A stretch of DNA of 64,000 bases, from assembly GCA_964503335.1 (NCBI GenBank), contig CAZCZZ010000010.1:2036-66035 (forward strand). The letters are read 5' to 3'. The notes under the pieces were generated by a model, which had not been told where the DNA came from, did no database searches, and was given only the letters and a program-made list of their open reading frames with translations. The stretch comes from an uncultured Verrucomicrobiota bacterium. Lineage in GTDB: Bacteria > Verrucomicrobiota > Kiritimatiellia > CAIVKH01. The position numbers and the translations under genes were made by a program. Each line of letters opens with the position of its first letter. Position 1 is the first letter of the stretch. Below, piece by piece: positions 7,948-27,231 of this stretch.

Positions 7948-8886
7948 ATGAGGCTTGCAGTGTGGAGAATCCGACCCATGGACATGTCGGATCGCTTTCG
8001 CGGATGCCTGCTCGGCTTGGCCTGTGGCGATGCCTTAGGCACGACGGTTGAATTCAAGCAGCGCGGATCGTTTCCTAAAGTTACATCAATGGTGGGCGGC
8101 GGGCCGTTCGGGCTGGAGCCCGGCCAATGGACGGATGACACCAGCATGGCCCTGTGCCTTGCCGAGAGCCTTGTCAGCTGTGGCGGATTCGACCCCGCAG
8201 ACCAGATGCGGCGCTATGTCCAGTGGTGGAAGCAGGGGCACCTCAGCAGCACTGGGGCATGCTTTGACATCGGGGTGACGACGCGAACAGCGCTAGCGCG
8301 GTTCCAGAGTACCGGCGACCCGTTCGCCGGCTCCACGGACCCGCATTCGGCCGGCAACGGGTGCATCATGCGTTTGGCACCGGTCCCCATGTACTTCCAC
8401 GGGGATTGGACCAAGGCTGTTCAGTACTCGGGCGATAGCTCAAGAACGACTCACGGGGCGGTCGAGTGCGTTGAGGCCTCGCGGCTCTTCGGTTCCATGA
8501 TCTTCAAGGCCCTGGCCGGCCAATCCAAGGAGGAGATCCTCTTCGGTGAGCACATTCCGCCCGGTGGCAAGGAATTAACATCACCCGCCATCCGGGAGAT
8601 CGCGACTGGCGCGTACCGCGCGAAGACTGCCGAGAAGATTCAGGGTAGCGGCTATGTCGTCAGATCGCTGGAGGCCGCCCTCTGGTGCTTCTATCGAACT
8701 CACGGCTATTCCGAGGCGGTCTTGACGGCCGTGAATCTGGGCGATGACGCGGACACAACCGGCGCCATCTGCGGACAGATTGCGGGGGCGTTCTACGGGG
8801 AAGCAAGCATACCGCAGTGCTGGCGGGATGAGACTGCGATGAAGGACGCGATTGTCGGTATGGCCAACGCATCAGGCAAAGATTGA
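7948..8886 (+). CDS. ADP-ribosylglycohydrolase family protein
   Basis: DRFRGCLLGLACGDALG, WTDDTSMALCLAESL, GNGCIMRLAPV and LGDDADTTGAICGQIAGAFYG motifs. The start could be 7942, 7948 or 7978. Confidence 0.85.
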   Translation: MRLAVWRIRPMDMSDRFRGCLLGLACGDALGTTVEFKQRGSFPKVTSMVGGGPFGLEPGQWTDDTSMALCLAESLVSCGGFDPADQMRRYVQWWKQGHLSSTGACFDIGVTTRTALARFQSTGDPFAGSTDPHSAGNGCIMRLAPVPMYFHGDWTKAVQYSGDSSRTTHGAVECVEASRLFGSMIFKALAGQSKEEILFGEHIPPGGKELTSPAIREIATGAYRAKTAEKIQGSGYVVRSLEAALWCFYRTHGYSEAVLTAVNLGDDADTTGAICGQIAGAFYGEASIPQCWRDETAMKDAIVGMANASGKD

Positions 8887-9050
8887 TTGCCACCCAGCAC
8901 ATGCTCGTCCAGGTGCGGGCGTGTGTTGTGCCCCCCCCATTCTGTATGCCAATCTAATCATTACTCACGTCAAGTTTTAGGACTGATCGCAGCTTGCGCC
9001 CAGACGCCCCTCCCGATAGAAATCGACCAATACTCGATCGCCTCCAGACC

Positions 9051-10343
9051 ATGACCCGCGAACCCTTAGAATTAGCGTCCATCGTCCTCCATTTCGGTGC
9101 GAGCGAGCTGCGCATCTCGCCTGGGGCGCGGGTGAAGGCCGAGGAGGTGCTTCCGCGCGGCAAGCTCGTCCGTGTCTGGCCGCGGGGTCGTCTGTTGGAG
9201 CCTTGTGATGGCGATGCCGGTTACAGTGAAACAGCCGAGTGGGAGTTGCCGTTTGGCATGTATTGGGGCCGGGTCTTCGTAAATGTTCCACAGGATGTCA
9301 TGGCGACGGTGGCCAGGTTCGCCAGCCACCAGTGGCATATGCTGGAATTCGCAAACAACCATCCGCCGTATCTTGACCTTATCCGGTCCAACCCGGTACT
9401 GGCATACGCCCTCGCATGCAGCGATGATCTCCGGCCCACAACGCCCGAGTCTGTCGCCAGGCGAGCGGCAGGGTATGCCGAACGCAAGCAGCGCGAGATT
9501 GCCCGCTTGCTGGGATTCCCAGCGACCGCGGCTACCGTCAGGATGCTCCAGCGAATGGCGCCGGAGGCCGTAAACCCATCCGTGCTGCGCATCGTCCAAT
9601 CCTGCCTGCCGTTGCCTTGTAAACTAGCCAGATCAATCAGCCACATGCACGTCATCAACTCCGGGGTGGTGACCTTTCTCACTCGCGCCCGTCTCCAAGC
9701 GCTGATCACGCCAAAGCTGCTGGGGGAGTTGGCCGAATCCGCGGACGAGCTGGCAAAGGCACCCACAGCAGACTTGGTCATGGACACCATGCGGATGGGC
9801 GAGGGGCTGGCGGAGTGGCGAGGCGTTCCACCATTTTGCTCACGAGCCCAAGTCCGGGAACTGCACGAAATGACGCTGTTAAGGCACCTAGCCGAGCAGG
9901 AAAGGATAAGGCGCCGGATCGAGGAGCAGCGTGCGCGCGAGCGGCAGGCGGAGGACGCGAGGGCGCGTCAGGCGGTTGGGGGGGTGGCGACCAACGCTTA
10001 TCTCCTGAACACCGTCTTCCCACCGCCTCCAGTTGCAGGGATCGACACCATTGTGCCCATCCTTTCCGCGGCGGACCTCAGGCTGGAGGGAATTACCCAG
10101 AAGAACTGCGTTTTCACCCGCGGGAACTACATACTCAGGGGTAGACTCTACGTGTACAGGGTGATTTCACCCGAGCGTGCAACGCTGGCCATCGCATCCG
10201 ATAACAGGGGCTTCTGGCGTGTGGCGGAGCTCCTGAAGAAGGCCAACGCCTCCGTCTCGGATAAGACGCGCGAACACGTCCACGCATGGCTCGCGACGGC
10301 GCAGGTCGGAAAGCGGGCACGCTGGGACGAAACACTGTTCTAG
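9051..10343 (+). CDS. hypothetical protein with PcfJ-like C-terminal region
   Basis: C-terminal LRLEGITQKNCVFTRGNYILRGRLYVYRV...RATLAI resembles the PcfJ-like family signature (EG..xxCV...Y). The rest is unrecognised. Confidence 0.4.
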   Translation: MTREPLELASIVLHFGASELRISPGARVKAEEVLPRGKLVRVWPRGRLLEPCDGDAGYSETAEWELPFGMYWGRVFVNVPQDVMATVARFASHQWHMLEFANNHPPYLDLIRSNPVLAYALACSDDLRPTTPESVARRAAGYAERKQREIARLLGFPATAATVRMLQRMAPEAVNPSVLRIVQSCLPLPCKLARSISHMHVINSGVVTFLTRARLQALITPKLLGELAESADELAKAPTADLVMDTMRMGEGLAEWRGVPPFCSRAQVRELHEMTLLRHLAEQERIRRRIEEQRARERQAEDARARQAVGGVATNAYLLNTVFPPPPVAGIDTIVPILSAADLRLEGITQKNCVFTRGNYILRGRLYVYRVISPERATLAIASDNRGFWRVAELLKKANASVSDKTREHVHAWLATAQVGKRARWDETLF

Positions 10344-10646
10344 GGTGATAACGAAGCTCCCAATTGTCGCGACTGCATGAGTACGTGAAGCAATGGAAAC
10401 GGAGACCGAAGGAGCACGACTGAACCTTAAAAAAGTGAGTGGGCCGTTGTAGCAAAGCCCGCCAGGATCCAGTAAGGCTGGCAAGAGAGGTTCCGAATAC
10501 GTGCCGAGTCACATTCTAGCATTGGCTCCTTGTCCGATCAGGCGCTGGCTGTAAGAATGCGCGACATTGTTGAGCAGCGGCGCGCGGGTTGTTTCTTTCA
10601 AAGGAGTGCCTGTCGCTGACATCTCCGAGATGTTACCAAATTGGCC

Positions 10647-13508
10647 ATGATATTGTCGCCAGCACAAGAGGATGTGATCACACGCCGCGGCTGTCCGGTG
10701 CGAGTGGTCGCATGTGCCGGATCGGGGAAAACGGAATCAATCGCACGGCGAGCGGGGGAATTGATCGCCGAGGGGGCTGCGCCTGATTCGATCATTGCCT
10801 TCACCTTCACGGAAAGAGCGGCTTCGGAGCTCAAGGAGCGCATCTACCGACACGTGGAAGCGCGAATGGGGCGAGCTTTCCTAGGGCGACTCGGCCCCAT
10901 GTACGTAGGCACTATTCATGGATATTGCTTCCGGTTGCTTCAAGACTGTGTTCCCCAATACGGAAACTATGATGTCTTGGATGAGCACAGGCATATTGGT
11001 CTGCTTAGCCGCGAGTACCAGCGTCTCGGGTTGAGTAAGCTTGGCACCAAGCACTGGGAACCGGTGAGGGATTTCGCTCGCACGGTCGACGTTATAAGCA
11101 ATGAACTGATCACTTCCTCAGCTCTGAATGGCACACCCATCGGCGAGTGCTATCAATCCTATGTCGAAATGCTTGAGCGCTATCGGTTCCTGACCTTCGG
11201 TCAACTGGTGGCAAAGGCTACCGAAGTGCTTAGCGATCCCGTTGTTTTCGCAAAGGCCCATGGTGCCCTACGACACCTGATCGTTGACGAGTACCAGGAT
11301 ATCAACCCAGCCCAGGAGCGTCTTATCGACTTGTTGGCTACTGCACCGGTACAGCTTTGTGTGGTCGGAGATGATGACCAGTCCATTTACCAATGGAGAG
11401 GGTCTGACGTTGCCAATATCCTGACGTTCGCGGACCGACATCTAGGGACACACACCGTCAAGCTTGAGACCAATCGTCGCAGTCGGCCTGCCATTATTGA
11501 GACCGCGAACAGGTTCGCGCAGTCTATTGCAGGGCGGCTGGATAAGTCCATGGAGCCGGCCCGTGCTACCGCCGATCCATGTGTTGTGCCTTGGCGTGCC
11601 GAAACAAATGAAAGCGAGGCAGCGCAGATTGCTGACACGATTCAGAAACTGCGCGCGCGAGGTTTCCGCTATCGCGACATGGCGATCCTATACCGTTCCG
11701 TAAAGACATCAGCGCCCTTGCTCGTGGCCGAGCTGGATCGGCTGGGGATTCCATACCAGTGCGGTGGGCGAACTGGACTCTTCCTGCAACCCGGAATCAA
11801 CGCGATCGGAGAGGTGTTCGCCTGGTTTGTTGACGGGACCTGGAAGGATGCGCGGTTCGGGCCTCAGCGGGATGCAGACCTTGACCATATCGCCGGGGAA
11901 TTGAATACGCATTTTGGGAACGGCTTGGGAATTCCAGAGCTGAAGAAGTACCTTCTGGACTGGCGAGGATTTCGTTTGCGGAGCAATCGGCCCGTCAGCT
12001 TGGTTGGCGACTACTACAAGCTGCTCCATTTCCTTGGTGCGAACACCATCGATGCCGATACGGCAGATGGCGCGGCGCGAATAGGTTCGTTGGCACGATT
12101 CTCGACGCTTCTTGCCGATTTTGAGCACGTCACTCGCCGCGGGCGCTATGTGCAGGAGGAATCGGGTGAGAAAGTGTTCCGCGGCGGCCAGGATCGAGGT
12201 AAGCCCTATTTCCAGCGACTTCACAACTATTTGCTGCATTACGCCCGGGATGCGTACGAGGACTTTGAGGGGGAGCAGAGCCTCGACATGGACGCGGTGG
12301 ACATCCTCACAGTCCATCAGGCCAAGGGGCTCGAATGGCCCGTCGTCTTTCTCCCATCACTCACTAGCCAGCGATTCCCTTCAAAGTTTGCGGGTGCCAA
12401 ACAGGACTGGCTGTTACCCGAAGCGGTGCTTCCCCCCTCAACACGACTGCGTTACGAAGGCGGAGAGGCGGAAGAACGTCGGCTGTTCTACGTTGCGATG
12501 ACACGGGCGCGAGACGCGCTCTACGTCTCATGTTTCGAGCGCATGCAGAAGGCTGTGAAGCCGTCACCCTATTTGGCCGAAGTGGCCGGCGGTGCTCAGA
12601 ATATTCGACGATACGCGGAGTTACCGTTACCGCCATTACCAGATGCTTCCACTGCAAAAGAATCTCCGACACTCGAGATCAGCTTCTCGGACATTGCGAC
12701 ATACGAGGAGTGTGGTTACCGATACCGTCTTGCCCGGGCCTTCGGCTATGAACAGGAGCTTGCGATTGAATTGGGCTACGGAAAGGCCATTCATCATGTG
12801 CTTCGCCAAGTGGCGGAATGCGCGTTGGCTAAAGGCAATCCTCCTTCTCTGGATGACGCGAAGGCCATTCTTGACGACGAGTTCTACCTTCCCTTCGCGG
12901 ACAATCCGACATTCATCCGAATGTTCAAGGCTGCGGGTGGTGTCGTGCGCAGATACCTAACTGACTATGCCGAGGATCTCCGCCGCGTATTCGCGATCGA
13001 ACGGCCCTTCGAAGTCAACCTGCCTGATGGCATCCTGAAGGGAAAGGCGGACATCATTCTGGACAAGGAAAATGGTCGTCCCGACAGGCTATCCATCGTT
13101 GACTACAAGACCAGCAACGACCCTGCGCGCGATGCTCGCTATGCGCTCCAGCTCGCGGTCTATGCAGCCGCAGGACGGGGAGAGGGCTTAGACGTCGTCG
13201 CGGGATATCTGCACGACCTTGACGATGGCGCTCGCCAGAGTGTTGATGTCGGTGAAGCCGTGACCACCAAAGCGGTTGAAGCGCTTGGTGTATCTGTCAA
13301 AAGGATCCGCAGCGGACAGTTCAAAGCGTGTTCTGACGCCACACTCTGCGACCGATGTGACTACAAGTATGTCTGTCGCCACAGTCGAGCTTCCGCCTCT
13401 CAAGAAACGTCGGACAGTGCGGATTTGAATCCAAAGGATCACGGCTTATCGGGAGTACAGGGAAACGTTATCAAGCGGTTGCTGCGGAAGGACGGAGGGG
13501 CACCGTGA
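10647..13508 (+). CDS. UvrD/PcrA-type SF1 helicase fused to a Cas4/AddB-like PD-(D/E)XK nuclease with Fe-S Cys motif
   Basis: ACAGSGKT, LIVDEYQDINPAQ, VVGDDDQSIYQWRG, TNRRS, TVHQAKGLEWPVVF and YVAMTRARDAL in the helicase part. C-terminal GKADIIL...IVDYKTS and Cys motif C...CDRCDYKYVC (CX2CX5C). Confidence 0.85.
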   Translation: MILSPAQEDVITRRGCPVRVVACAGSGKTESIARRAGELIAEGAAPDSIIAFTFTERAASELKERIYRHVEARMGRAFLGRLGPMYVGTIHGYCFRLLQDCVPQYGNYDVLDEHRHIGLLSREYQRLGLSKLGTKHWEPVRDFARTVDVISNELITSSALNGTPIGECYQSYVEMLERYRFLTFGQLVAKATEVLSDPVVFAKAHGALRHLIVDEYQDINPAQERLIDLLATAPVQLCVVGDDDQSIYQWRGSDVANILTFADRHLGTHTVKLETNRRSRPAIIETANRFAQSIAGRLDKSMEPARATADPCVVPWRAETNESEAAQIADTIQKLRARGFRYRDMAILYRSVKTSAPLLVAELDRLGIPYQCGGRTGLFLQPGINAIGEVFAWFVDGTWKDARFGPQRDADLDHIAGELNTHFGNGLGIPELKKYLLDWRGFRLRSNRPVSLVGDYYKLLHFLGANTIDADTADGAARIGSLARFSTLLADFEHVTRRGRYVQEESGEKVFRGGQDRGKPYFQRLHNYLLHYARDAYEDFEGEQSLDMDAVDILTVHQAKGLEWPVVFLPSLTSQRFPSKFAGAKQDWLLPEAVLPPSTRLRYEGGEAEERRLFYVAMTRARDALYVSCFERMQKAVKPSPYLAEVAGGAQNIRRYAELPLPPLPDASTAKESPTLEISFSDIATYEECGYRYRLARAFGYEQELAIELGYGKAIHHVLRQVAECALAKGNPPSLDDAKAILDDEFYLPFADNPTFIRMFKAAGGVVRRYLTDYAEDLRRVFAIERPFEVNLPDGILKGKADIILDKENGRPDRLSIVDYKTSNDPARDARYALQLAVYAAAGRGEGLDVVAGYLHDLDDGARQSVDVGEAVTTKAVEALGVSVKRIRSGQFKACSDATLCDRCDYKYVCRHSRASASQETSDSADLNPKDHGLSGVQGNVIKRLLRKDGGAP

Positions 13509-14377
13509 GCACGCCATCCGATCGAAGCGAAGATTTGCAGAGCCCTCTTCGTTATCCAGGGGGAAAGAGGTTTCTCTGCCCCTACATCGAGGCGATCATC
13601 CGTCGCAACAAACTCAAGCCTAGACTGCTCGTCGAGCCATTCGCCGGTGGCGCAAGCGTTGCGTTGCATCTCCTTGGCTTGGGGTTGGTCGAAAAGATCG
13701 CATTGTACGATGCCGATCCAATGGTGGTCGGACTTTGGCAGACCGTGTTTCATGACGGCAAATGGCTCCGGAGGAAAGTACGGGGCGCGAAAATCACGCT
13801 GGATTTATGGGAACAACTGAAGGACGCACCGCTGGACGGCAATCGAAACAATGCCTGGAAATGCCTTTTTCTGAACCGGACAAGCTTTTCCGGAATTCTC
13901 TCGCAACAGGCTGGTCCCATTGGTGGAAAACTTCAGCAATCGGACTACAAGATCGACTGCCGCTTCTACCGTGACACAACCATCAAACGGTTGAAACGTT
14001 TGGCCGCGCACAAATACCTCGTAGAGGACATCGGTGTCGCCACCTGGCAGGCGACGCTCAAGAAATTCGCCGTAAACAAAGGTACAGAAAAAAGCGATAC
14101 GTTGATCTACCTTGATCCTCCATTTTATCACAAGGCGGATCGCCTCTACGGCCACTACTTCCTGTCTGGGCAGCACGAGGAGCTCATCAAGCGGCTTGCC
14201 AAGAGCCATCAACCATGGATTCTGAGTTACGACAACTGTACCGAGATTGTGAGTCTCTTCCGGAAGTACGGATTGCGTTACCGCTCCGTGCCTGTGAGCT
14301 ATACCTCCAGCGTCGGATGCAAAAGAGAATCGAAGAAAGAGCTCGTTGCCAGTAACTTGTCACTACCGAAAGCGTAA
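13505..14377 (+). CDS. Dam-like (D12 class) N6-adenine DNA methyltransferase
   Basis: The GTG start overlaps the upstream stop (GTGA). Motifs LRYPGGKR, EPFAGGASV (motif I) and YLDPPFY (motif IV). Confidence 0.85.
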   Translation: MSTPSDRSEDLQSPLRYPGGKRFLCPYIEAIIRRNKLKPRLLVEPFAGGASVALHLLGLGLVEKIALYDADPMVVGLWQTVFHDGKWLRRKVRGAKITLDLWEQLKDAPLDGNRNNAWKCLFLNRTSFSGILSQQAGPIGGKLQQSDYKIDCRFYRDTTIKRLKRLAAHKYLVEDIGVATWQATLKKFAVNKGTEKSDTLIYLDPPFYHKADRLYGHYFLSGQHEELIKRLAKSHQPWILSYDNCTEIVSLFRKYGLRYRSVPVSYTSSVGCKRESKKELVASNLSLPKA

Positions 14378-14382
14378 CCATC

Positions 14383-16368
14383 ATGAGCATAGCCGATCGC
14401 ATCGCGGGAAAAGACCATCTGCCGAGTATGATCCAGCCCGACAATTTTATCGGATGGGCATACCGGATCGATTACGAACACGCCTATGTAATGACCAACG
14501 ATATCTGGAAGTCCAAGGTCAATGGCGTGCCGCACAATTCCTTCCTGCTGGCCTCATCCTTTGTTCCCGATACCTACGCCGCGACGAAGGTCGCACACAA
14601 AGAGATTATCCTCCTGCGCGTCATTGGGTCCGCGCAGCTTCCAATGGATGACGAGCTCGTCAGCACGAAGATCGAGCACTATCAAGACAAGCAGGGGAGC
14701 GAACCTGTCGAAGGCGAAATGGATGATCTGACCCGGAACATGCTCCAGTTCAATGGACTTCAGTGTAGGATCCTAGGCACCTTCTACACGGACGCCGACG
14801 GACGACTTTGCCTCGGTAGCGACTTGGAAACATATCACTCGGCCGTGCAACTGCAGGTCTACAAGCCGCGCGAAGATGCTTTGGCGACCATCGTCAACTA
14901 CATCAACCCTATTCGCGAAGCCGCTGCGCGTGACGATGCCAAGGCGTTGGGCATAGAAGGCGCCATGCCCAGCTTCCCAATCGGGGCTGTCCGATACACC
15001 TCGGCCAACCGTCTGCAGAAAGTAGACCGAGAGGTCGTCGTCCATGTTCAGTCCGTCGACTTCCTGGCTCGGCGCACAGCGGTCTTCGGCATGACGCGGA
15101 CCGGCAAATCTAACATGATCAAACAGCTTGTCTCGGTGGTGAAGCGTTCCGCCGACCAAACAGGTCTCAAGATCGGTCAGATCATCTACGACTTGAATGG
15201 GGAGTACGCGAACGCAAACAAGCAGGACGCGGGGGCCTTGGCGGATGTGTACCCGGGCGATACGGAGCGATATCGCATGCTGCCAGCAGAGGGCTTCAAC
15301 CTGATTCAGAACAACTTCTATCTCCAGATCCCTGAAGGGTTCATGGTCATTCAGCAGGTGATGGATGACCGCCAAACCCCGTCGGCAGACCTTCGTGCAT
15401 TCCTGAACGTCTCGTTTGAGGAGCCTGATTCGGAGGATCGTTCCGCGCACTACCGCTGGCAAGTCAAGCGGGCAATCTATCAAGCGATGCTGTTCAAAGC
15501 TGGTTTTCCAGCGCCCAAAGGTCTCAGTGTTAACTTCCCGGTAAACGAGAACATCCGCAATGCAATCGACCCGAAGGGCACATTCCCGGCCGCATCGGGT
15601 GGGCGTCTGACTCTCGCCCTGGATCAAGCGGTGCGGTGGTTTGAGACGGCCCGCGCCATCAATCGGGAGGCGCAGCTCGTTTCGTCGTCTGGCAACCCGT
15701 GGTTGGACGAAGACGCCACCGCGTTACTGAACATGCTGGCCGGGCGAAATAGCAATGACGCCTACATCACAGGCTACAAGCATCTGGCTCCCCTAAAGGA
15801 CTTCCACTCCCCCAGCCGCACCCAGGACGTATCTGAGGAGATCTACCAACATCTTGTCGCCGGCAAGATCGTGATTCTGGATCTATCGGTGGGCGATCCG
15901 AACCAACGTACCCGGTTGAGTAAAGTCATTGCTCAGCACATCTTCAAGCGGTCGATGGGTACCTTCAACGAGGGACGTTTTCCGCCCAGCATCATGATCT
16001 ACGTGGAGGAGGCCCATAACATCATGGGCCGGAAAGATGATCTCACCGACACGTGGCCCAGGATCGCCAAGGAGGGCGCCAAGTTCAGGATCGGAACGGT
16101 GTACGCGACTCAGGAGGTGTCGTCTATGCACCCGAACATCCTGGCCAACACGGAGAATATGTTTGTCTCGCACATCAACAACGAGGCCGAAGTCAGGGAA
16201 TTGTCCAAGTTTTACGACTTTGCCGACTTCGGGGTTTCGTTGATTCGGGCTCAAGATGTTGGCTTCTCGAGGGTGAAAACGCTGTCGAGTCCATTTGTGA
16301 TTCCAGTCCAGATACACAAGTTCGATCCCGAAGCCGAGAAGAAGCGGGCAGCTGCGGAAGCGGGTTGA
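14383..16368 (+). CDS. herA: HerA-like FtsK/HerA-superfamily ATPase
   Basis: Walker A GMTRTGKSN, Walker B IMIYVEEAHN, and YATQEVSSMHPNILANTENMFVSHINN typical of HerA/DUF87. 5-nt gap after the MTase. Confidence 0.8.
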   Translation: MSIADRIAGKDHLPSMIQPDNFIGWAYRIDYEHAYVMTNDIWKSKVNGVPHNSFLLASSFVPDTYAATKVAHKEIILLRVIGSAQLPMDDELVSTKIEHYQDKQGSEPVEGEMDDLTRNMLQFNGLQCRILGTFYTDADGRLCLGSDLETYHSAVQLQVYKPREDALATIVNYINPIREAAARDDAKALGIEGAMPSFPIGAVRYTSANRLQKVDREVVVHVQSVDFLARRTAVFGMTRTGKSNMIKQLVSVVKRSADQTGLKIGQIIYDLNGEYANANKQDAGALADVYPGDTERYRMLPAEGFNLIQNNFYLQIPEGFMVIQQVMDDRQTPSADLRAFLNVSFEEPDSEDRSAHYRWQVKRAIYQAMLFKAGFPAPKGLSVNFPVNENIRNAIDPKGTFPAASGGRLTLALDQAVRWFETARAINREAQLVSSSGNPWLDEDATALLNMLAGRNSNDAYITGYKHLAPLKDFHSPSRTQDVSEEIYQHLVAGKIVILDLSVGDPNQRTRLSKVIAQHIFKRSMGTFNEGRFPPSIMIYVEEAHNIMGRKDDLTDTWPRIAKEGAKFRIGTVYATQEVSSMHPNILANTENMFVSHINNEAEVRELSKFYDFADFGVSLIRAQDVGFSRVKTLSSPFVIPVQIHKFDPEAEKKRAAAEAG

Positions 16369-16376
16369 GATTCATC

Positions 16377-17774
16377 ATGCCCTACGAGAATCAATTTGGA
16401 AGCAAGACGGCGCATGCCGACATCGTGCGCAATCCGGATGTGCAGGCCTTTCTTGAGCAGTGCCGCCCGCTGCGTGAGCCATCGGAGGAATCAAGTCGGG
16501 AGCTGGCTTCCTCCTTTGTGGCGCCGCCGGCCGAATCGCGAGGGGGTTCAACCAGTTTTGTCATCGCATCCGATGGCAGCTTCTACGCCTCAAGTATTGA
16601 TAAGCGACTGCCGAGCATCCAGGTGTGCTACCTGAAGTTCAGCACCATTCTGATTGAGATGCTCGATTTCCACGGGCTTGAAGACGTCGGGACAAGCATG
16701 ATCGATCCTTTCCGAGTGGCAGCGCTCAAGAAGAACCGAGACACACTCACCTTGGTCCTGCCGCTGTCGAACTTTCGCCTTCCAGAAGACGACTCGGTTC
16801 GGAAGTCCTTTCGCAAGCAGCTCGACGCCTTCCTCTGGTCGCCTGCTACGCGTTTCCGGACTGACCACCCCGATACCAGTCTGATGGGAACACTGATCGA
16901 GTTGGCCCAGCTCCGGGATGATCCGCACGCCCCGACCGGGCAAATCAAAGTGCATAAATGTCCGAATCCTGATTGCGATGCCGAGAGCATCTACCTCGAT
17001 CCCGAGGATCCTTCACACGCCTGCGCCAAGTGTGGACAACCCTTGTATCTCAGCGATTGCCTTCGCCTCTGGGAGGGGGTCAATGATTTCCACGCCAATC
17101 AGGAGCCTTCATCCCGCTTCATGAGTTACGTGGAGCATCTCCTGCCGATCCATTACCTGCGATTTCTCCGCGATACCGCACCGGCCCAGCTCCAGGAGCT
17201 GGCCATTTTGGTGGATGGACCGCTGGCGGTTTTCGGGCAGGCGGCTTGGCTTCATCAATGCCTCATGCGGTTCCTGTATCGGCTTAGGGAAAGCCAACGG
17301 GAGAAGGGAATGGCCTTCCCTGTGGTGATGGGTCTGCAGAAGACCGGCTACGTGGTGGAGTACATGCAGCTGCTCGATCGCTACATCCCGGCCAACCGCC
17401 TATTCAGCATTACCGATGAGTTCCGTTACACGCATCTTGGCGTGGAGCGGTCCGGCAACGGGTTCGGAAGTGAGACCTACTACGGGCAAGACTTCGGTTT
17501 CAAGACGCCTTCGGGCAAGTTGTTTGTGTTCGGCCTGCCTTACCCCTTCCCCTCAAAGCGGGGCACCACGGGTTTCCCTTCGGCCAAGTGCGACATCAGT
17601 CGGTATGGCGAGCTGGGCCGGGCATTGAGTCTGATCAACCAGGTGGAAACCGATCTCTATCGGGATGCTCTGGTTCCTATTGCTCTGGCCCACCGCTACA
17701 CCGCGATTAGCCTGCGGCCAGGCGGGAAAGTACTGGATGTCATGGGGAGAACCGCACAGAGGGCCGGGTCCTGA
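16377..17774 (+). CDS. nurA: NurA-like nuclease with inserted zinc ribbon
   Basis: IASDGS (DGS motif), ILVDGPLAVFG and GLQKTGY blocks. CPNPDC...CAKC is a Cys4 ribbon. ATG at 16377 lies 8 nt after the herA stop; the track ORF from 16053 is an extension. Confidence 0.65.
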   Translation: MPYENQFGSKTAHADIVRNPDVQAFLEQCRPLREPSEESSRELASSFVAPPAESRGGSTSFVIASDGSFYASSIDKRLPSIQVCYLKFSTILIEMLDFHGLEDVGTSMIDPFRVAALKKNRDTLTLVLPLSNFRLPEDDSVRKSFRKQLDAFLWSPATRFRTDHPDTSLMGTLIELAQLRDDPHAPTGQIKVHKCPNPDCDAESIYLDPEDPSHACAKCGQPLYLSDCLRLWEGVNDFHANQEPSSRFMSYVEHLLPIHYLRFLRDTAPAQLQELAILVDGPLAVFGQAAWLHQCLMRFLYRLRESQREKGMAFPVVMGLQKTGYVVEYMQLLDRYIPANRLFSITDEFRYTHLGVERSGNGFGSETYYGQDFGFKTPSGKLFVFGLPYPFPSKRGTTGFPSAKCDISRYGELGRALSLINQVETDLYRDALVPIALAHRYTAISLRPGGKVLDVMGRTAQRAGS

Positions 17775-17810
17775 CCCGTCGACACCAGACTTGCTGCTGG
17801 CGCTGACATC

Positions 17811-18920
17811 ATGAATCCAAACGACCTGTTCTGGACCAGCCCTCCAAAGGATGAAGAGCCACTTCCTGTCGATCCGCTGGGGCTCGACGTGATGAGGGAC
17901 GAGTTGGCCGATCGCCTCGTACCGTGTCTGACCAGTCGCACGAAACGCCACGAGGACTTCTTCTGGACCTTGGTTTTCATTAAATGGGCCGCATCGGAAC
18001 CCACGCACGAAGCCCGTGTAGCGGCCTTCCTGCGGTATGAGCGCTGGCTGAAGCTTCTCTGGGCCAAGTACGGCAGCGAAGCGGGTTTCGCGGGAAGCCG
18101 TCGTGCGAAAGTTCAATCACAGGAAGATGGAGCGCCGCTTGTCGCGTACAAGAGGCTTCTCAAGATGCCCCAGTCGCAAGGGATGTTGGGTGCCCACCTC
18201 GCGCCGCTTCGATCCCTTGGTCTGGTTGTTGAATCGGAGAGCCTTGAGCTTACGGACGGCCCTGCCCGGAACGACAGCGGTGCGGCACTTGTTATGGCGA
18301 TCGATCCCGACCCGCCCCGATTGCGCGATGGCAAGTGGTCCGATTGGAAGAGAGATTTCGATGGCGTGCGTGAACACTTTGCCGGCGGTGATTTCCGGCG
18401 ACGCCTTCGTAATCTCATGGCGAAGAAGATGCCAGTCTTAGACGGCGCACTCGCATCGCTGCGATACCCAGCACAGGGTACCCAGCAGTGGACCCGCGCG
18501 GCGAAGCACATGCCTTCGGGGTTGGCCCCCTATGCCCGACTTGCGGGAGCCTTCTGCCCGTGGGCGGCCGAGATGCGGGATTTCTTCGTGGCATGCGTGG
18601 AGAGCCGCTGCAGCGACAAGTCGATTCGGTGCCCGAAACCCCTTGCAGCAAGCATCCCTTCAGACCTTGAGCGCTGGGAGCCGCTGCGCAAAGCGCTTGC
18701 CCGGTGGGACAAGGCGAGTCCCGTGCGGTTTATGGCGGACTGGCATCGGGAGGTCTTCGAGGGCAGGGGATACGGGAAGTCGGATCTCTGGCTATCGTAC
18801 GAAGATGGCCGTCCCATGGCATTCCCCGGTCGAGTATCCGCAACGAAGAATGTCGAAGGCGATTGCCGGTGGTCCAACGCGGTGACCTTGCTGAAACCGC
18901 GTCGGGGAGGGCGGGCATGA
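17811..18920 (+). CDS. hypothetical protein (369 aa), no recognised domain
   Basis: Long ORF in the operon frame, coupled by an ATGA overlap to the next gene. N-terminal DPLGLDVMRDELADRLVPCLTSRTKRHEDFFW motif. Confidence 0.6.
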   Translation: MNPNDLFWTSPPKDEEPLPVDPLGLDVMRDELADRLVPCLTSRTKRHEDFFWTLVFIKWAASEPTHEARVAAFLRYERWLKLLWAKYGSEAGFAGSRRAKVQSQEDGAPLVAYKRLLKMPQSQGMLGAHLAPLRSLGLVVESESLELTDGPARNDSGAALVMAIDPDPPRLRDGKWSDWKRDFDGVREHFAGGDFRRRLRNLMAKKMPVLDGALASLRYPAQGTQQWTRAAKHMPSGLAPYARLAGAFCPWAAEMRDFFVACVESRCSDKSIRCPKPLAASIPSDLERWEPLRKALARWDKASPVRFMADWHREVFEGRGYGKSDLWLSYEDGRPMAFPGRVSATKNVEGDCRWSNAVTLLKPRRGGRA

Positions 18921-20692
18921 TGGTCGATCGTGCCGCCATCATGGAACGTCTTTTGGAGTTGGTCGGCGCGGACTCCGTTGAAGCCGCTTTCTTCACAACC
19001 TACACGTTTGGCCGGAGTTTCTTTGAAGACGATGTTCTCAATCCGCTGACAGAAGACGGCTCCCTTCGCGGCATTATCCCCGTGACCGTGGTGGTCGACC
19101 GCCATCGGTACGCCGGGAGCAACTACGGGTACGAGGTCGTCCGTTATCCGAATGCGGGCCGGCTGTGGCATCCCAAAAACATCCTGCTAATGGTACGTGA
19201 CAGGCGCAGTGGTTGGCTCCGAACCATTTTCGGCATTGGCAGCGCGAATCTCACACGAACTGGGTGGGAGCAGAACGACGAGTTGGTCAGTCTTCAAGAC
19301 TGGCCTGGGTGGAAGATTCCCGCGGTCGTGAGCAAGTGGTTGAGAGCACCATGGCTTGTTCACTCCCAGTTTGCGGAGTGGGCCAGGGTGAATGCGTCCG
19401 TCCGAAAGAAGCTGCCCTACCGACATATGCTGCTGTCCAGTCTCGATACGCCGCTCTGGCCACAGATCCCGGAGTACTACCGCATCAAGAACTGGGACGA
19501 GGCTCATGTGGTGGCGCCGTTCCATGACCAAAGCGACCCAGACAGCGATGATATGGAGGGGAACCAAGGGCATGGCGGATTCCTTCAGCAACTCTGCAAG
19601 ATGGCCCGCTCGGGAAGATCCAAGTTGCACCTCTATCTGGCCTCCTCCAGTGAGGAGAAGGGGGAATGCTGCGTTGCCGCATCCAAGGGAGCGCTGGAGC
19701 GTGTCAGCAAGGTTGTCAGCCTCAATCTTCGGATGATCAAGCCCCGCAACAAGGGACTGTTTCATGCCAAACTGACGGCTGTTCGTGTAGGCACGTCGTG
19801 GTGCATCGTCACCGGCTCCCCCAATGCCACATCGGCCGCCTTTGTCAGCGAATGCGGTAACGTAGAGGTGGCTCTTTGCCGGTATCACAGGGGAAGGTCC
19901 ATTCCGAAGTCCCTTCTGCCGGCGTCGAGCCCCGTGTCGCTCAACCGGCTACGTTCGTTGCCTGGCGTGACGAGAGAGGTCATCTGGGATGCGCTCGATT
20001 CCGCAGCGTACGACGTGAAGCGACGGAAACTCACCCTCGCCTGGCGCACAGGCTACAATCTGGGCAATACGGAGATCCAATTCGACGGCAAGGTTGTCGA
20101 TCCGGGGAAGTTCGAGCCCGGGGACAGCCAGAGCCGCTCGCTGCAGACCCTGCCGCGGAAGAGAACCCCGAAGCCCGTATCTCCGGGCACCTGCCCGATC
20201 ACATGGAAGGATGATGTGCCGGACGTCGGGTGCACCCGCCTCCGAGCGATGACACCCAACGATTGGCTCGAAGCTCTGGGATCTGTAGTCACCTCGCCTC
20301 TGACCAAGGAGGGCGTTCCGGGGCCGAGCAGCGGTTCATCGGAGAAAGGCGAGGCCGGCAAATCCTCATCGTTTGACTGGGCTGTTCGGGTCAAGCGGCT
20401 GGATGCCAGCCTCGCGTCGGTCACCGCCCAACTCGGGGACATCCGATCCGAGAGGATTCTTAGCCTGCTCCTTCGTGACGTCATCGGGGCATGGAAGGCG
20501 CACAATCCGCACGCCCGCCGGATTTCCGCCGCCGAGAAGGCTTGGCGCATGTGGGTCAGGGCCGGCTTGTGGCAGGTGCTGGACCGGACGCGGGGCAAGA
20601 CCTCCGGGGTACGCAGGGTGCGTAGGCAGGCAGATGCCTTGGCGCGAACCATTCCCCAGAAGCTCAAGGAGTACCCCATTGCGCCCGAGTAA
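18917..20692 (+). CDS. phospholipase-D-superfamily (two HKD-like motifs) putative nuclease with ~250-aa C-terminal extension
   Basis: HPKNILLM...GSANLT and HAKLTAV...GSPNAT. The ATG at 18917 overlaps the upstream stop. Confidence 0.7.
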   Translation: MMVDRAAIMERLLELVGADSVEAAFFTTYTFGRSFFEDDVLNPLTEDGSLRGIIPVTVVVDRHRYAGSNYGYEVVRYPNAGRLWHPKNILLMVRDRRSGWLRTIFGIGSANLTRTGWEQNDELVSLQDWPGWKIPAVVSKWLRAPWLVHSQFAEWARVNASVRKKLPYRHMLLSSLDTPLWPQIPEYYRIKNWDEAHVVAPFHDQSDPDSDDMEGNQGHGGFLQQLCKMARSGRSKLHLYLASSSEEKGECCVAASKGALERVSKVVSLNLRMIKPRNKGLFHAKLTAVRVGTSWCIVTGSPNATSAAFVSECGNVEVALCRYHRGRSIPKSLLPASSPVSLNRLRSLPGVTREVIWDALDSAAYDVKRRKLTLAWRTGYNLGNTEIQFDGKVVDPGKFEPGDSQSRSLQTLPRKRTPKPVSPGTCPITWKDDVPDVGCTRLRAMTPNDWLEALGSVVTSPLTKEGVPGPSSGSSEKGEAGKSSSFDWAVRVKRLDASLASVTAQLGDIRSERILSLLLRDVIGAWKAHNPHARRISAAEKAWRMWVRAGLWQVLDRTRGKTSGVRRVRRQADALARTIPQKLKEYPIAPE

Positions 20693-22865
20693 GCGAAAAG
20701 CGTTGAGCCGCGACGACCTTGGCTGGGTCAGATTCCCGCGCGGGGGAGGCGACAGGATATCCGCTAGCCATCGCAATCGGCAGCTCAAGACGGCCCGTCG
20801 ACTCCTGCGGGGTCTCTACGGTGAGGATGCCGTGCCAGGAATGATGCTCGGCGACGAGGTCGGGATGGGGAAGACCTACGTATCCCTCGCGGTGGTTGCG
20901 TCGGTTTGCCGCCACCAACCCGACGCCCGCGTCGTCATCCTCGCCCACAACGAGGATATGGCAAGAACATGGCGTGACCGCTGGGACTCAATCGCGAAGA
21001 AGACGCGCCCGCCCGGGAGCCATTCACCGCTGCCGGAAGGCCAGAGGCTCAATAAGGCCCGCGATATGGGGAAGAAGGGCGTCTACTTCGGCTCGTACGA
21101 GACGTACAAGCGCGTGTCAACCGACAGTGCCCGCATGATGCTGGAGGCCTTGCTTGAGGGAAGCGGCATCCATGATCCAACCCGCAGGCGTCTCCGACAC
21201 CAACTTTTCGGGACGCGCGCAAGAGGAGACGATCTCTGTGACGCATTGCGCCGCCCCTCAATAACAACACGAGAGAGGTTTGTCGCCCGGCACTACGATT
21301 GTCACACGAAGGGTTGGAAGAGCTGGTGGTCTGCGGCTGCGGAGATCCGTCGGATTGTCCTCGGCAACTCGCGCTCGCGCCGCCCCATTGACTTGCTGAT
21401 CGTGGATGAGGCTCACAAGCTGGAGAGCGATCAGCGGACGGTCTTCATGTCGGAGGTGCTCGACGGACGTGTGAAGCGCGCTCTCTTTGTGACGGCCACT
21501 CCGTTTGCACTCCGCGTGGCGCAGCTCATCGATCGCCTGAACGACATCTACGATGTTACCGAGTGGCCTGGCAAGGCGGGGAAGCTCAAGGCTGTGAAGG
21601 GCGATGTGAAGGAGTTTGCCGACACCGTGGGCAGGAATGCGGGCGCGGCACACGAACTTCGTGAACGTGTCGAGGCGTCGTTGGGTCGATATCTTGTGCG
21701 ATCTCGATGGCCGGAGCGCATCAGCAAGCAAGGACCGCCTCGTCGTGATAACAAGTTGATCCCGCACAATATCTCGCGGCAGATCACCGAGACCGACGCT
21801 TTTGCGATCCTGGCGCTCGAGACAGCCTACCGCCGAATCTCGAACTGTGGGGAACGGGTACATCGCGCCTCGTATCGTGAGACCCTTTGCTCTTCGTACT
21901 CTGCAGTTCGCAAGTCGATGACACGGAAGGACCTCGAGGAGAAGTCGCCCGTCCCGCGTTTTCTTAAGGGACTTGATGACTTCATCCCGCGAAATTCCGA
22001 ATCGCCAAAGTTCCAGAATGCCTTGAGTTTCCTGGTCCAAAGTGCCAGAGGGCGACACAAAGTCGTTGTCTTCTGTAAGCGCACCGCCACCGTCGAGCGC
22101 ATGCGTCGGGAGATTCATGCGGCGTTTGCCCGGATTCGGAAGATGCACTCGATGGAATGGCAGAAAGTTCAGCGGCGTTTACCCCAGTGGAAGAAGGATG
22201 GACTACCGCAGGACATGGAATGGGACGAGTGCATTGCGTGGTTGAGGTTTGCGGTTCATCATCACGTCCGCAAGAAAATCAACCGTCGCAATTGGCAGAG
22301 CCTCGTTCTTCGCATGAAGGAACATGGCTGTCGCGCGGCCGGCGACAACTACCTCGAACTGCTTCGCCAGACATGGGGAAGAGGGCATCGTGCGGATTGG
22401 GTTGCCGAACTGAGCGGGAGCATGCCGGATGAGAATTCCTCAGACCTCTCGACGCGGGAGCACCGCAAGCGTGGGCGCAGCAAAAGTGCGGTTCGTTTCG
22501 CTTTCAATCTGCCCGGCCCGCCCTATGTCCTTGTCTGCACCAGCGTTGCTCGGGAGGGCATTGATCTTCACCACTGGTGCCACAAGCTCCTTCAGTACGA
22601 TCTGGAGTGGAACCCGGCCTGGATGGAGCAGCAGGTGGGTCGAGTCGATCGCATTAACTCACTGGCACACCGGATGAGAGTCCCGGTCGAGGTGTACTAC
22701 GCTCACTTGCCGGGTACCTACGAAGAGTACATTGCCGATGAAGTGAAGCGCCGCTGCGAGATGCTTCGGCTCGTCCTTGGTGCCGGCGAATGGCTTGCCG
22801 ACAAGCCGGAGGATCAGAAGCGCATTGCAGAGTTGGAGCGCTACCAGCTCGACTTCGAGCCGTAA
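20634..22865 (+). CDS. SNF2-family helicase
   Basis: GDEVGMGKT, LLIVDEAHKLES, VTATPF, and C-terminal VLVCTSVAREGIDLH...YDLEWNPAWMEQQVGRVDR. The start is uncertain (ATG 20634 or TTG 20679); both overlap the PLD gene end. Confidence 0.8.
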   Translation: MPWREPFPRSSRSTPLRPSKRKALSRDDLGWVRFPRGGGDRISASHRNRQLKTARRLLRGLYGEDAVPGMMLGDEVGMGKTYVSLAVVASVCRHQPDARVVILAHNEDMARTWRDRWDSIAKKTRPPGSHSPLPEGQRLNKARDMGKKGVYFGSYETYKRVSTDSARMMLEALLEGSGIHDPTRRRLRHQLFGTRARGDDLCDALRRPSITTRERFVARHYDCHTKGWKSWWSAAAEIRRIVLGNSRSRRPIDLLIVDEAHKLESDQRTVFMSEVLDGRVKRALFVTATPFALRVAQLIDRLNDIYDVTEWPGKAGKLKAVKGDVKEFADTVGRNAGAAHELRERVEASLGRYLVRSRWPERISKQGPPRRDNKLIPHNISRQITETDAFAILALETAYRRISNCGERVHRASYRETLCSSYSAVRKSMTRKDLEEKSPVPRFLKGLDDFIPRNSESPKFQNALSFLVQSARGRHKVVVFCKRTATVERMRREIHAAFARIRKMHSMEWQKVQRRLPQWKKDGLPQDMEWDECIAWLRFAVHHHVRKKINRRNWQSLVLRMKEHGCRAAGDNYLELLRQTWGRGHRADWVAELSGSMPDENSSDLSTREHRKRGRSKSAVRFAFNLPGPPYVLVCTSVAREGIDLHHWCHKLLQYDLEWNPAWMEQQVGRVDRINSLAHRMRVPVEVYYAHLPGTYEEYIADEVKRRCEMLRLVLGAGEWLADKPEDQKRIAELERYQLDFEP

Positions 22866-23210
22866 GGCTATTCAAATTTCAATGTGGCTTCAAAGCGGCA
22901 CTGGAGGCATTCGCCTCTGAACGGGACATCAACCCTGCGTCTGCCCCGTTACGGGATGCCCTAAATCGAAAATTTGGCGACGAACACAGCATTGGAGCCA
23001 AAGAGTATGCTGATTTTTGTCTGGGAGGAATACGGGGCTTGGGTGCAATCGAAGACTTTGATATTAGATACGCCCAGCGTGTTCAGGAAGCGGTGCTTGT
23101 TGGGGAGCAACTGCGGTTGGCCTTTGGTTGAACCGCAGGTCACGCTGCCTGATATCCCGATAATCGTATGATGATTACTTGCTCTGAAGCGGTTGGATGT
23201 GGGGTGCGCC

Positions 23211-25493
23211 ATGGGTTATAGGCTGAGTACCTATACGAGGGAGAGTCTGTCCAATGTGGCTATTCCAGGTGTCGCAGCTCCATCCCTGTTCTGGCTGATG
23301 CCCGTGGGTACGTGGCCACAGGACGAGTTGCGCAATCTGGATCGCCTCTTCTATGAGGACGATGGCCCCTGCAAGGATCTTGGCTTACTGCTTGTCAGAG
23401 ACATGTTCGGGCGGCAACGAGCCGAGGGCGGCGTCACAGATCTCTCCTCATTGTCGAGTTCATTGGCCGATGTCTTGCCCGTATCGCGTTTAGAGGGCCG
23501 AGCGATCTCGATGTCAGGGACCGCTTCGCGGAGACAGGTGCTCGTGATGGGCGGCGCGTATCCTCAGCCGGGATGGGGGATGCTTCTTTCGCTAGGTAAA
23601 GATCCTTGCCGCGAAATTAACCAACTCATCGCGAAGGTACTGGCTGCGATGACGTCCGACCAGACTCAGCCGTTGATCGATTCCATCAAGCAGGCCACGC
23701 GAGCTTTCCACGCATGGAAAGATGCAGGATCAATGAGTGGTTTCATCACTCGGGCAATTCCTGGTAGTGCGAAGGAGAAGCTCATCGCTGCAGCCACAAC
23801 CTACAGAAAGCTCTCCGAGATCTTAGCGAAGGGTGATGTCAAAGAGCTCAAGGAATTCAGGCAGAAGCTTATTCGTGATGGCACACCCGAACTGCCGACC
23901 GGGCTCCTGGACGAGGCTGGTTTGCATGAGTTAATACTCGCGAAGGGCCTCGGAAGACTCGCGACCGATGTGGTTGCGATGCGGTTGGTTCCGACACTGA
24001 AGGAGCTCGTAGAACTTCCAAAGGACGAACGGCCAGACAAGCTAGGTGTTCTCGGTCCTTATGGCTGTAGGCAAGAAGGGCGAAGTTGGTTGATACTCAA
24101 TGACTTTGGCAAGGCTCCGCCGCTGGCCGACCTACTCGCGTGGCGAGAGTCTGCCCAGCGAAACGTCGTGGATCGGCATCAAGTCGAAATCGAGACACTC
24201 ATTAAGAAGAGCTCCGATGCTTTGGGGCAATGCGTCGCCGAAGAGGTTGAGCAGGCCGAGTGCCTGAAGAAATCATTGGAGAGTAAATCAAGGGCGGTCG
24301 GTCAGGCGCAGAAGACATTCCAAACAGCGCTCAAGGAAGCAGCCGTCGCTCAGTGGGACATAGGCCCGCGCTTCCTCACTGAACTTGAAGCTGTGTGTCG
24401 GCAAGGCAACACTGACTTCACTACCATTCCGTGGGACCCGCCACGAATGATTGGATGGAAGCTCTTCGCTCAAGGATTGAATATCAGGCTTGGCGATCTG
24501 ACCGCGTCGGCCAGAAAGTTTCTCGGCAAGACGGACATAGAGCAAGCCGTTGCTGCGGGAGATATCTCGTCCCCCGTAGACGGAAGCTACTTCACCGACT
24601 GGGTTCACTACGTCGTTTCCCAGGATCCGACACGAAATGTTCGCGAAGTAACTGAGCATTACCTCGTGGATCTTCTTGGTTTGGTTAGCCTTCGGAGGGC
24701 CGTTGAGAGGTCCGGGGGCTCCACGGAGCTGCTTTCAGACCAGTTTTTGCTAGCACGTCAACTGCTTGACCTCATGGGGTGGCGAAGCTCCAGTCCTCCC
24801 GCACGGCGAACACTTGCAAATGTGACGCTCAATTCTGGAACAGATACCGACGTCTCCGCCAATGACCTTCGGAAGATTCTGGAGAATTTCTGCAAAGATC
24901 TTATCGATGTCCTCGTGATGGATGTTGCCGGTGGGGTCGGCCGAACCGTGCAGCTTCTTCAGTCTGCTGTGCCCGCGTATCGATTCAGTAAACGGACATG
25001 GGATGCGGAAGTTGCCTCGATCACACTCGGGCCTGCTGCAATGCTGCTGAAGACGTTGGCACCGATTGCTGCGCCGACACGACAAGAAGCTGCGGCAAAC
25101 CTCTCGGGGCTGGTGGCAGAGCTTGCCAAGCTGCTGAATCAAGGCAGCCACGATATTGCCAATGGAGAGGTAGACCCTTACGACGTGACGACGGCCTGCG
25201 CCCTGTGCAGGGAACTGATACAGGCTGCGAGCGAGCTGATCACGGAGATGCCATGGCACCTCTCGCCTTCCCATCGCTCCGGAGAGAATCCTACTGTTAT
25301 TAGCGGTATGGCATGGAGTCACAGCCACCCGCAACCAAGGTTGATTCGCGTCATGCTGTTCGGAGACGAAACAGTTGGAGACTCTTCATCCATGTTCATC
25401 AGGAACTTATCCGGAAGGAATCCGGTGATGACCGATGTAATGACAATCCATCGTCCGATCGAACCTCTACCGAAGGTGACAACGTCCGACTAG
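23211..25493 (+). CDS. hypothetical protein (~760 aa), no recognised domain
   Basis: Uninterrupted ORF with a coiled-coil-like central segment. First gene of the long co-directional array. Alternative starts at TTG 23193 and GTG 23199. Confidence 0.6.
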   Translation: MGYRLSTYTRESLSNVAIPGVAAPSLFWLMPVGTWPQDELRNLDRLFYEDDGPCKDLGLLLVRDMFGRQRAEGGVTDLSSLSSSLADVLPVSRLEGRAISMSGTASRRQVLVMGGAYPQPGWGMLLSLGKDPCREINQLIAKVLAAMTSDQTQPLIDSIKQATRAFHAWKDAGSMSGFITRAIPGSAKEKLIAAATTYRKLSEILAKGDVKELKEFRQKLIRDGTPELPTGLLDEAGLHELILAKGLGRLATDVVAMRLVPTLKELVELPKDERPDKLGVLGPYGCRQEGRSWLILNDFGKAPPLADLLAWRESAQRNVVDRHQVEIETLIKKSSDALGQCVAEEVEQAECLKKSLESKSRAVGQAQKTFQTALKEAAVAQWDIGPRFLTELEAVCRQGNTDFTTIPWDPPRMIGWKLFAQGLNIRLGDLTASARKFLGKTDIEQAVAAGDISSPVDGSYFTDWVHYVVSQDPTRNVREVTEHYLVDLLGLVSLRRAVERSGGSTELLSDQFLLARQLLDLMGWRSSSPPARRTLANVTLNSGTDTDVSANDLRKILENFCKDLIDVLVMDVAGGVGRTVQLLQSAVPAYRFSKRTWDAEVASITLGPAAMLLKTLAPIAAPTRQEAAANLSGLVAELAKLLNQGSHDIANGEVDPYDVTTACALCRELIQAASELITEMPWHLSPSHRSGENPTVISGMAWSHSHPQPRLIRVMLFGDETVGDSSSMFIRNLSGRNPVMTDVMTIHRPIEPLPKVTTSD

Positions 25494-25529
25494 TGTGAAT
25501 GCAGCAGAGACAATGAACTGATTCGTCCA

Positions 25530-27221: not shown

Positions 27222-27231
27222 GGGATAATTC

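Follow-up and report, generated by a model that had tools for sequence, protein, structure and literature searches.

HerA–NurA is viewed mainly as an archaeal machine for DNA-end resection, and its bacterial copies are poorly understood, with one study reportedly linking them to DNA donation in Thermus and another to phosphorothioate-dependent restriction. TdpABC (An et al., 2025, Nat Chem Biol) is said to work as a phosphorothioate-based restriction-modification (R-M) system of thermophiles, and Azaca is reportedly the ZacABC system of Millman et al. (2022). Here, a run of seven genes (g1–g7, positions 10647-22865) is compared with these and related systems; it lies in a 64,000-nt stretch of contig CAZCZZ010000010.1 (hereafter the window) from an uncultured Verrucomicrobiota bacterium of the lineage Kiritimatiellia. 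We consider it fairly likely that the run consists of two independent modules placed side by side in a mosaic defense island: module A (g1–g4), an R-M-like system in which a HerA–NurA pair would be gated by N6-methyladenine (m6A), and module B (g5–g7, also called the trio), which would be of the Azaca/PDC-M27 type.

In TdpABC, a modification-plus-restriction system, TdpC makes the phosphorothioate marks and TdpAB restricts (PMC12914056). In Thermus thermophilus, an operon of the element ICEth1 combines the genes of Tth111II, of a NurA-like nuclease and of the HerA-like TdtA with a methylase gene; Tth111II, the NurA-like nuclease and TdtA are each required for transjugation, that is, DNA donation (PMC5365140). 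In the Azaca complex, DNA cleavage depends on each of ZacA (DUF6361), the phospholipase D (PLD) nuclease ZacB and the ATPase ZacC, needs the Walker A motif of ZacC and prefers phage T4 DNA; an anti-phage activity requiring all three proteins is known for BmAzaca only (bioRxiv 10.1101/2025.07.10.664194).

The division into two modules emerges from gene order in other sequences. All findable loci with a g5 relative were collected, and the seven window proteins were mapped onto them by tblastn (labels such as L001, L009 or L034–L046 denote related loci retrieved for comparison). Every g5-relative locus with a long enough contig had g5, the g6 homolog and the g7 homolog in this order, and the trio stood alone in about a dozen different contexts; outside the window's own contigs, tblastn found no methyltransferase (MTase, g2), HerA or NurA in these loci. 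The upstream neighbors of the trio differed from one context to another, comprising WYL regulators, Cas4-DUF2779, UvrD-PDDEXK, an N6_N4 MTase with an MBL-fold protein, a 1955-aa AAA_22 protein, or GAF and protease genes. Vice versa, the g1-g2-g3-g4 block was present without the trio in L036, L037 and L043 (NurA 63–84% identical). In that order of loci, the identity to the window proteins was 89, 80 and 75% for g3, 84, 73 and 63% for g4, 74, 61 and 58% for g1, and 66, 58 and 55% for g2, the same rank order of divergence for all four, as co-inheritance as a unit predicts. Breakpoints were visible at the DNA level as well: in a blastn comparison of the window with L036, the closest related island, alignments covered positions 10662-17764 (72%) and 25530-29946 (85%) and left the stretch between them empty. 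Since this 7.8-kb stretch, holding g5–g7 and a further gene, g8, has no counterpart in L036, where two unrelated genes of 327 and 292 aa take its place, the trio sits in a variable cargo slot. The intact trio elsewhere without MTase, HerA and NurA, together with the g1–g4 block without the trio, thus points to two separable modules; the small differences in GC and GC3 (GC of 0.563 in module A and 0.606 in module B) lend weak support to their separateness.

The gene packing itself gives a different impression. Seven open reading frames (ORFs) follow each other on the plus strand, all co-directional, with a GTGA overlap between g1 and g2 (13505-13508, read from the sequence), gaps of 5 nt (14378-14382), 8 nt (16369-16376) and 36 nt (17775-17810) at the g2/g3, g3/g4 and g4/g5 junctions, and an ATGA overlap between g5 and g6 (18917-18920). 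The start of g7 is most likely TTG 20679, 7 nt after AAGGAG, with an overlap of 14 nt with the end of g6. An initial annotation, made from the letters alone, had described this co-directional arrangement, its junctions and some 300 bp of non-coding DNA on each side, all of which could be read in the sequence again. The 327 bp 3' of g7 (22866-23192), counted as non-coding, are overlapped in part by a 113-aa ATG ORF (22790-23131), which has no family match, overlaps the 3' end of g7 and occupies most of this spacer.

The same annotation had taken all seven genes for one methylation-associated, DISARM-like defense system, with HerA–NurA, g5 and UvrD-Cas4 replacing DrmA and DrmB, a reading which we now regard as very improbable. 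The tight junctions and the g4–g5 gap without a terminator-like site speak for it, as do the weak matches of g7 to DrmD models (PADLOC 9e-19; NCBIfam 81.7 bits) and one trio context, L010, with an MTase two genes upstream, albeit of another family (N6_N4). However, the two halves were combined in no other sequence, and L036 has module A together with the downstream island but no trio. Since g1–g7 are syntenic nowhere else among the sequences found, an outcome which the annotation itself had named as refuting it, the single-system claim fails; the co-occurrence of the gene families that it had proposed to examine was recovered for the g1–g4 block and for the trio separately, not for all seven.

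The window set does share an SNF2-family helicase, a PLD protein and an adenine MTase with class 1 DISARM, as had been pointed out, but the best models of the PLD and SNF2 proteins are those of Azaca/PDC-M27 and the MTase belongs to the other module. The family scans covered 27 window proteins against Pfam, 17 of these also against PADLOC, and g1–g7 also against NCBIfam. Neither DUF1998 nor a protein with DrmA as its best model was detected among them, in line with the absence of DrmA and DrmB already noted in the initial annotation, and there was no DrmC among the 27 scanned proteins. DISARM membership was therefore rejected: the 81.7 bits of g7 are far under the cut-off of 610 of NF038317 (DISARM_DrmD), g6 has no DrmC match, and g2, instead of DrmMI, has PD-Lambda-5_B and type II MTases as its best models. 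Tight gene packing within a defense island is hence no evidence for a single system, and cargo modules, here the Azaca-like trio, can slot between and even inside other systems.

What remains after the single-system claim falls is a candidate, apparently widespread, methylation-coupled HerA–NurA restriction module. The protein g1 matches UvrD-helicase (8e-53), UvrD_C (2e-39), PDDEXK_1 (6e-25) and Cas_Cas4 (2e-5) in Pfam and carries, in translation, the motifs GSGKT, D801...D818xK820 and QxxxY as well as a Cas4-type set of four cysteines (C689 and C901x2C904x5C910). It is thus predicted to be a superfamily 1 (SF1) UvrD-type helicase fused to a RecB/Cas4-type PD-(D/E)XK nuclease, and its orthologs lie directly 5' of the MTase in L036, L037 and L043. 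The product of g2 matches MethyltransfD12 (Pfam, 1e-13), with DPPF at 204, and its best PADLOC models are PD-Lambda-5_B (5e-70) and type II MTases; it is presumed to be a D12-class (Dam-like) N6-adenine DNA methyltransferase and the self-marking enzyme of the module. The product of g3, a predicted hexameric translocase/ATPase of the HerA family, has DUF87 (Pfam, 4e-10) and the Walker A motif GMTRTGKS. When its sequence was searched against PDB, the nearest solved relative was TdpA (8wet, 1.5e-20), every other solved HerA scoring 1e-9 or worse, and the matches to SIR2-HerA and DUF4297-HerA models were weak, no better than 1e-9 in PDB and 4e-16 in PADLOC.

The identity of g4 was less direct, with no match in Pfam, PADLOC (PADLOC-DB 2.0) or NCBIfam. 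Its family has at least 762 homologs, many with PF09376 NurA, and all eight significant PDB fold matches (E <= 0.001) of its AlphaFold2 (AF2) model (pLDDT 82.9) were NurA-fold chains. The top match was 8wfd_G (E 3.6e-7, probability 1.00), the 358-aa non-TdpA chain of the TdpAB complex, taken as TdpB, and was followed by NurA of D. radiodurans, P. furiosus, T. kodakarensis and S. solfataricus. A sequence search of PDB with a 22-sequence profile gave noise only, so that the NurA/TdpB relationship was recovered by the structure model alone; on this model, g4 is a predicted NurA-fold, TdpB-like nuclease. The 465-aa protein has a family-invariant D66-G-S and four invariant cysteines (C195/C200/C216/C219). 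The latter belong to an element inserted at residues ~190-225 (16947-17051) and modeled as two small beta-hairpins, which looks like a zinc ribbon and may set g4 apart from TdpB; it could be an element of DNA recognition or modification sensing. The gene family calls of the initial annotation were all upheld by the Pfam, PADLOC and NCBIfam scans and motifs, that of NurA via homologs and the structure model only.

When 13 genomic contexts of the NurA (g4) family were compared, the window included, HerA adjoined NurA in all of them and a DNA methyltransferase in 11, one of these being HsdM of a type I system. A g2-like MTase (24–67% identity) stood beside HerA–NurA in 8 of the 13 contexts and a g1-like UvrD-nuclease in four, with one further split copy. 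These adjacency counts point to MTase + HerA + NurA as the wider core, with UvrD-Cas4 as a probable accessory of one clade. The contexts included a haloarchaeal (Halorarius) plasmid, a Deferribacter megaplasmid and a Vibrio temperate phage. In the Deferribacter megaplasmid (L042 4141-7939), an IS200/IS605 element interrupts HerA, a sign of decay.

As in TdpABC, the genes of a HerA-like ATPase and a NurA-fold nuclease lie in module A beside the gene of a single DNA-modifying enzyme. Since the solved protein nearest to g3 is TdpA and the one nearest to the g4 model is TdpB, module A is read as a methylation-based analog of TdpABC. In contrast to TdpABC, there is no TdpC, the sole modification gene encodes a D12 m6A MTase, and UvrD-Cas4 is additional; without TdpC, module A would be Tdp-like in its working rather than a member of TdpABC. 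By analogy, the g2 enzyme would mark host DNA with m6A, as in an R-M-like system. As in TdpAB, a HerA hexamer with a bound NurA dimer would load on DNA and translocate along it at the expense of ATP, and HerA–NurA would degrade the DNA unless blocked by the modification. The lineage-specific UvrD-Cas4, which might join the complex, probably opens or resects DNA ends. We tentatively propose that module A represents a widespread class of ATP-dependent R-M systems, in which a TdpAB-like HerA/NurA is gated by m6A and not by phosphorothioation, although we rate this somewhat below an even chance.

No description of an MTase–HerA–NurA defense system was found in the searchable literature. The novelty of a methylation-associated system, which the initial annotation had ascribed to the whole set, may accordingly be kept for the MTase and HerA–NurA (plus UvrD-Cas4) part and not for all seven genes. 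The recurrence of this cassette on islands, plasmids and a prophage suggests that HerA–NurA might be a more general restriction effector, whose motor-nuclease may couple to different kinds of self-mark; if true, the sensing of DNA modification by a ring translocase becomes testable.

Several observations weigh against the two-module interpretation. Neither a terminator nor a promoter was recognizable in the 36-nt gap between g4 and g5, so that g1–g7 may be one transcript and cross-talk between the modules would be conceivable; co-transcription of modules A and B is quite plausible here. There is no MTase near NurA in L040 and only a type I R-M system in L035, and in L034 (7149-7996) the D12 MTase appears to be broken in two by a frameshift, next to an intact HerA and NurA. 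The frameshift may be an assembly error; if real, it speaks against a strictly lethal unmethylated state, and these three loci together argue against a strict restriction-modification logic. Furthermore, g5 has no DUF6361, so that the Azaca analogy of the third subunit of module B rests on position and PDC-M27A only. Finally, as the PADLOC-DB used dates from 2023, newer catalogs might already name module A.

On a different reading, module A does not serve immunity in the first place. It might instead be the DNA-processing or donation machinery of a mobile element similar to ICEth1, or a HerA–NurA module of end-resection repair, and we consider this unlikely. On ICEth1, which bears an integrase, the genes of an N4/N6 methylase, a NurA-like nuclease and a HerA-like ATPase share an operon (PMC5365140), and the island in the window starts with an integrase-like gene. 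The architecture is partly shared, with a further nuclease encoded alongside on the island in both cases; HerA–NurA is, moreover, the classical resection machine (PMC12977600). However, in ICEth1 NurA precedes HerA, the methylase is of PF01555 and not of the D12 class, and the nuclease encoded with them is a restriction enzyme of type IIG, whereas module A has UvrD-Cas4 and no type IIG enzyme. Among solved proteins, g3 and g4 come closest to TdpA and TdpB, which act in restriction, and not to the HerA–NurA of repair, the neighbors are overwhelmingly defense genes, and in the Vibrio prophage the triad of HerA, NurA and MTase adjoins the integrase. There are no Mre11, Rad50 or conjugation genes among the scanned genes. 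The set does not fit a HerA–NurA operon of double-strand-break repair, given that Mre11 and Rad50 are missing from the scanned genes and that it lies in a mosaic defense island starting with an integrase-like gene.

Another alternative concerns the borders of the module. Downstream of g4, the window has a type III-like MTase (MT3) and a 1217-aa protein with ResIII and a C-terminal S24 (LexA-like) peptidase, an unusual fusion of a helicase/restriction-type protein to an S24 autoprotease; defense genes are inserted between g4, MT3 and the S24 protein. In L043, g4 is followed after a 47-nt gap by MT3 (56% identity) and then the S24 protein (67%), making six contiguous genes, a single 177-aa gene separates g1–g4 from the MT3 and S24 homologs in L037, and MT3 is also retained downstream in L036. 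The six genes could therefore form a larger, interrupted system, with the trio and other genes as inserted cargo; this possibility also appears improbable to us. The linkage was seen in no clade but the closest, where NurA is at least 63% identical, and may hence reflect shared island ancestry, both genes are missing from the more distant MTase–HerA–NurA loci L038, L039, L044 and L046, and the MTase and the ResIII protein might work on their own as a type III-like pair. MT3 and the S24 protein may belong with g1–g4 to an ancestral six-gene arrangement or make up a separate MTase plus helicase-peptidase pair. The two homologs occupy 11442-18022 in L043 and 12033-18696 in L037, with MT3 homologs 56–61% and S24 protein homologs 67% identical to those of the window.

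Turning to module B, g5 had no Pfam, PADLOC or NCBIfam match. Its family numbers 49 proteins among 5.8 billion, or 290 representatives by profile search; it is a real and well conserved family, if a rare one, and the g5 clade is known from metagenomes only. Among the GTDB species representatives, only two loci had g5 relatives, and none was found on plasmids. The structure prediction that had been recommended for g5 produced a confident all-alpha AF2 model (pLDDT 89.7) and no fold match in PDB or BFVD, where the best E values were 0.9 and 1.7, respectively. At the profile level, the g5 family aligned with a family of 400-460-aa proteins (hhalign probability 99.9%, E 6e-31, 325 columns), members of which, in contrast to g5 itself, match PDC-M27A at 1.8e-14 and 1.5e-9; one member of that family has a g6-like PLD gene next in order.

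The top PADLOC model of g6 was ZacB (6.3e-14, residues 75-376), a weak and partial match, followed by PDC-M27B (3e-6). A search of PDB with the g6 sequence found nothing. In Pfam, g6 matched PLDc_2 (7.5e-7), and it has two HxK...GSxN motifs (H85/GSAN108 and H283/GSPN300). For g7, the top PADLOC model was ZacC (3.4e-33), with PDC-M27C close behind (7e-30), and the Pfam matches were ResIII, Helicase_C and SNF2-rel_dom, with the motifs GMGKT and DEAH; the protein has 728 aa against about 1019 positions in the ZacC model.

The trio thus shares with Azaca and PDC-M27, a PADLOC candidate, the order small subunit, PLD nuclease, SF2/SNF2-like ATPase. The HxK nuclease feature of ZacB is present in g6, if weakly and partially, and the Walker A helicase feature of ZacC in g7; of the PDC-M27 set, C and B are matched directly, A only via the remote homologs of g5, and the trio synteny is conserved. 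However, the scores are far from full-length family membership. Neither g5 nor 32 family members gave DUF6361 at E <= 10 in Pfam, and no ZacA match was obtained in PADLOC at E <= 1; the candidate identity of g5 as ZacA/DUF6361 was therefore rejected. The trio consequently appears to be a divergent relative of the already named Azaca/PDC-M27 kind and not a strict Azaca member, with a third subunit without known fold. The earlier proposal of an undescribed system accordingly applies to module A and not to the trio, which has best models in ZacB/ZacC and PDC-M27B/C. Nothing on PDC-M27, or on NurA in anti-phage work, was found in the searchable literature. Module B would act as a nuclease-NTPase complex of the Azaca/PDC-M27 type, for which the MTase would not be needed: the PLD nuclease would cut phage DNA only in a complex that also contains the small alpha-helical subunit and the SNF2-like ATPase.

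Genes of Cas4/PD-(D/E)XK-type nucleases were seen upstream of the trio in three unrelated contexts. A UvrD_C-PDDEXK gene lies directly upstream in L009 (66-1475), a gene of a 1003-aa UvrD-PDDEXK protein 4 kb upstream in L001 (2920-5931), and a Cas4-DUF2779 gene directly upstream in L016/L017 (L017 82-1569). None of them is an ortholog of g1 (<=34% identity, partial), and their recurrence could be due to chance in defense islands or to a loose functional association.

Apart from the systems considered above, SIR2-HerA (Nezha) and DUF4297-HerA (Hailibu) resemble module A in having a HerA hexamer with an effector in defense islands, but the effector here is NurA and has a cognate MTase. Gabija was rejected despite the matches of g1 to GajB models (PADLOC, 8e-52): g1 carries a nuclease domain, no GajA is adjacent, and the OLD gene lies 13.7 kb off, at 27232, with Old as its best model. 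MADS was rejected too, with weak, marginal mad8 and mad2 matches and no other mad genes present.

Table 1. Position and predicted character of the features in and around the g1–g7 locus (window coordinates).
Feature	Position	Strand	Predicted product or character
Spacer 5' of g1	10344-10646		Non-coding, 303 bp, GC 0.535; presumed promoter region of module A
g1	10647-13508	+	UvrD-Cas4, accessory of module A
g2	13505-14377	+	D12-class (Dam-like) MTase, module A
g3	14383-16368	+	HerA-family ATPase, TdpA-like subgroup, module A
g4	16377-17774	+	NurA-fold nuclease (TdpB-like), module A
g5	17811-18920	+	All-alpha protein, ZacA/PDC-M27A position, module B
g6	18917-20692	+	Two-HKD PLD-family nuclease, ZacB-like, module B
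g7	20679-22865	+	SF2/SNF2-like ATPase, ZacC-like, module B
Variable cargo slot	17765-25529		No counterpart in L036; contains module B and g8
MT3	29273-32374		Type III-like MTase, 11.5 kb downstream of g4
ResIII + S24 protein	40732-44385		1217 aa, C-terminal S24 (LexA-like) peptidase, 23 kb downstream of g4

The spacer 5' of g1 showed no sigma-70-type consensus site. The promoter scan gave one promoter-like site against 5.4 expected and terminator-like sites at chance level, and was thus uninformative. Beside the trio, the slot holds g8 (23193-25493), a 766-aa ORF outside the conserved synteny of the trio, which had no match in Pfam, PADLOC or NCBIfam and was not in any related locus retrieved.

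The defense setting proposed in the initial annotation was confirmed, the island starting with an integrase-like gene and also bearing GmrSD/HEC-05, OLD, a type III-like MTase and Mokosh-, Dpd- and Pbe-like helicases. Right after the slot come genes of a GmrSD-type protein (PADLOC HEC-05, 2e-95) and an OLD-family ATPase-TOPRIM protein (Old, 2e-96) at 25530-29346, which share 85% DNA identity with L036. A further co-directional run of large defense-type genes occupies 32367-47494 and includes a MkoA-like SF1 helicase (1123 aa, 5e-52), a DpdF-like DEAD helicase (1360 aa, 3e-77), a 239-aa ORF, a PbeA-like helicase (479 aa, 3e-50) and a 557-aa protein with a weak LmuB match. There is no tRNA near the presumed left end of the island (5001-10343), the sole tRNA of the window being Thr(tgt) at 63052-63127. 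This left end contains a holin-family ORF, the tyrosine-integrase-like gene (5663-6934, weak Pfam matches), an ADP-ribosylglycohydrolase gene (7942-8886) and a gene of a PcfJ-like protein (8994-10343, sub-threshold match).

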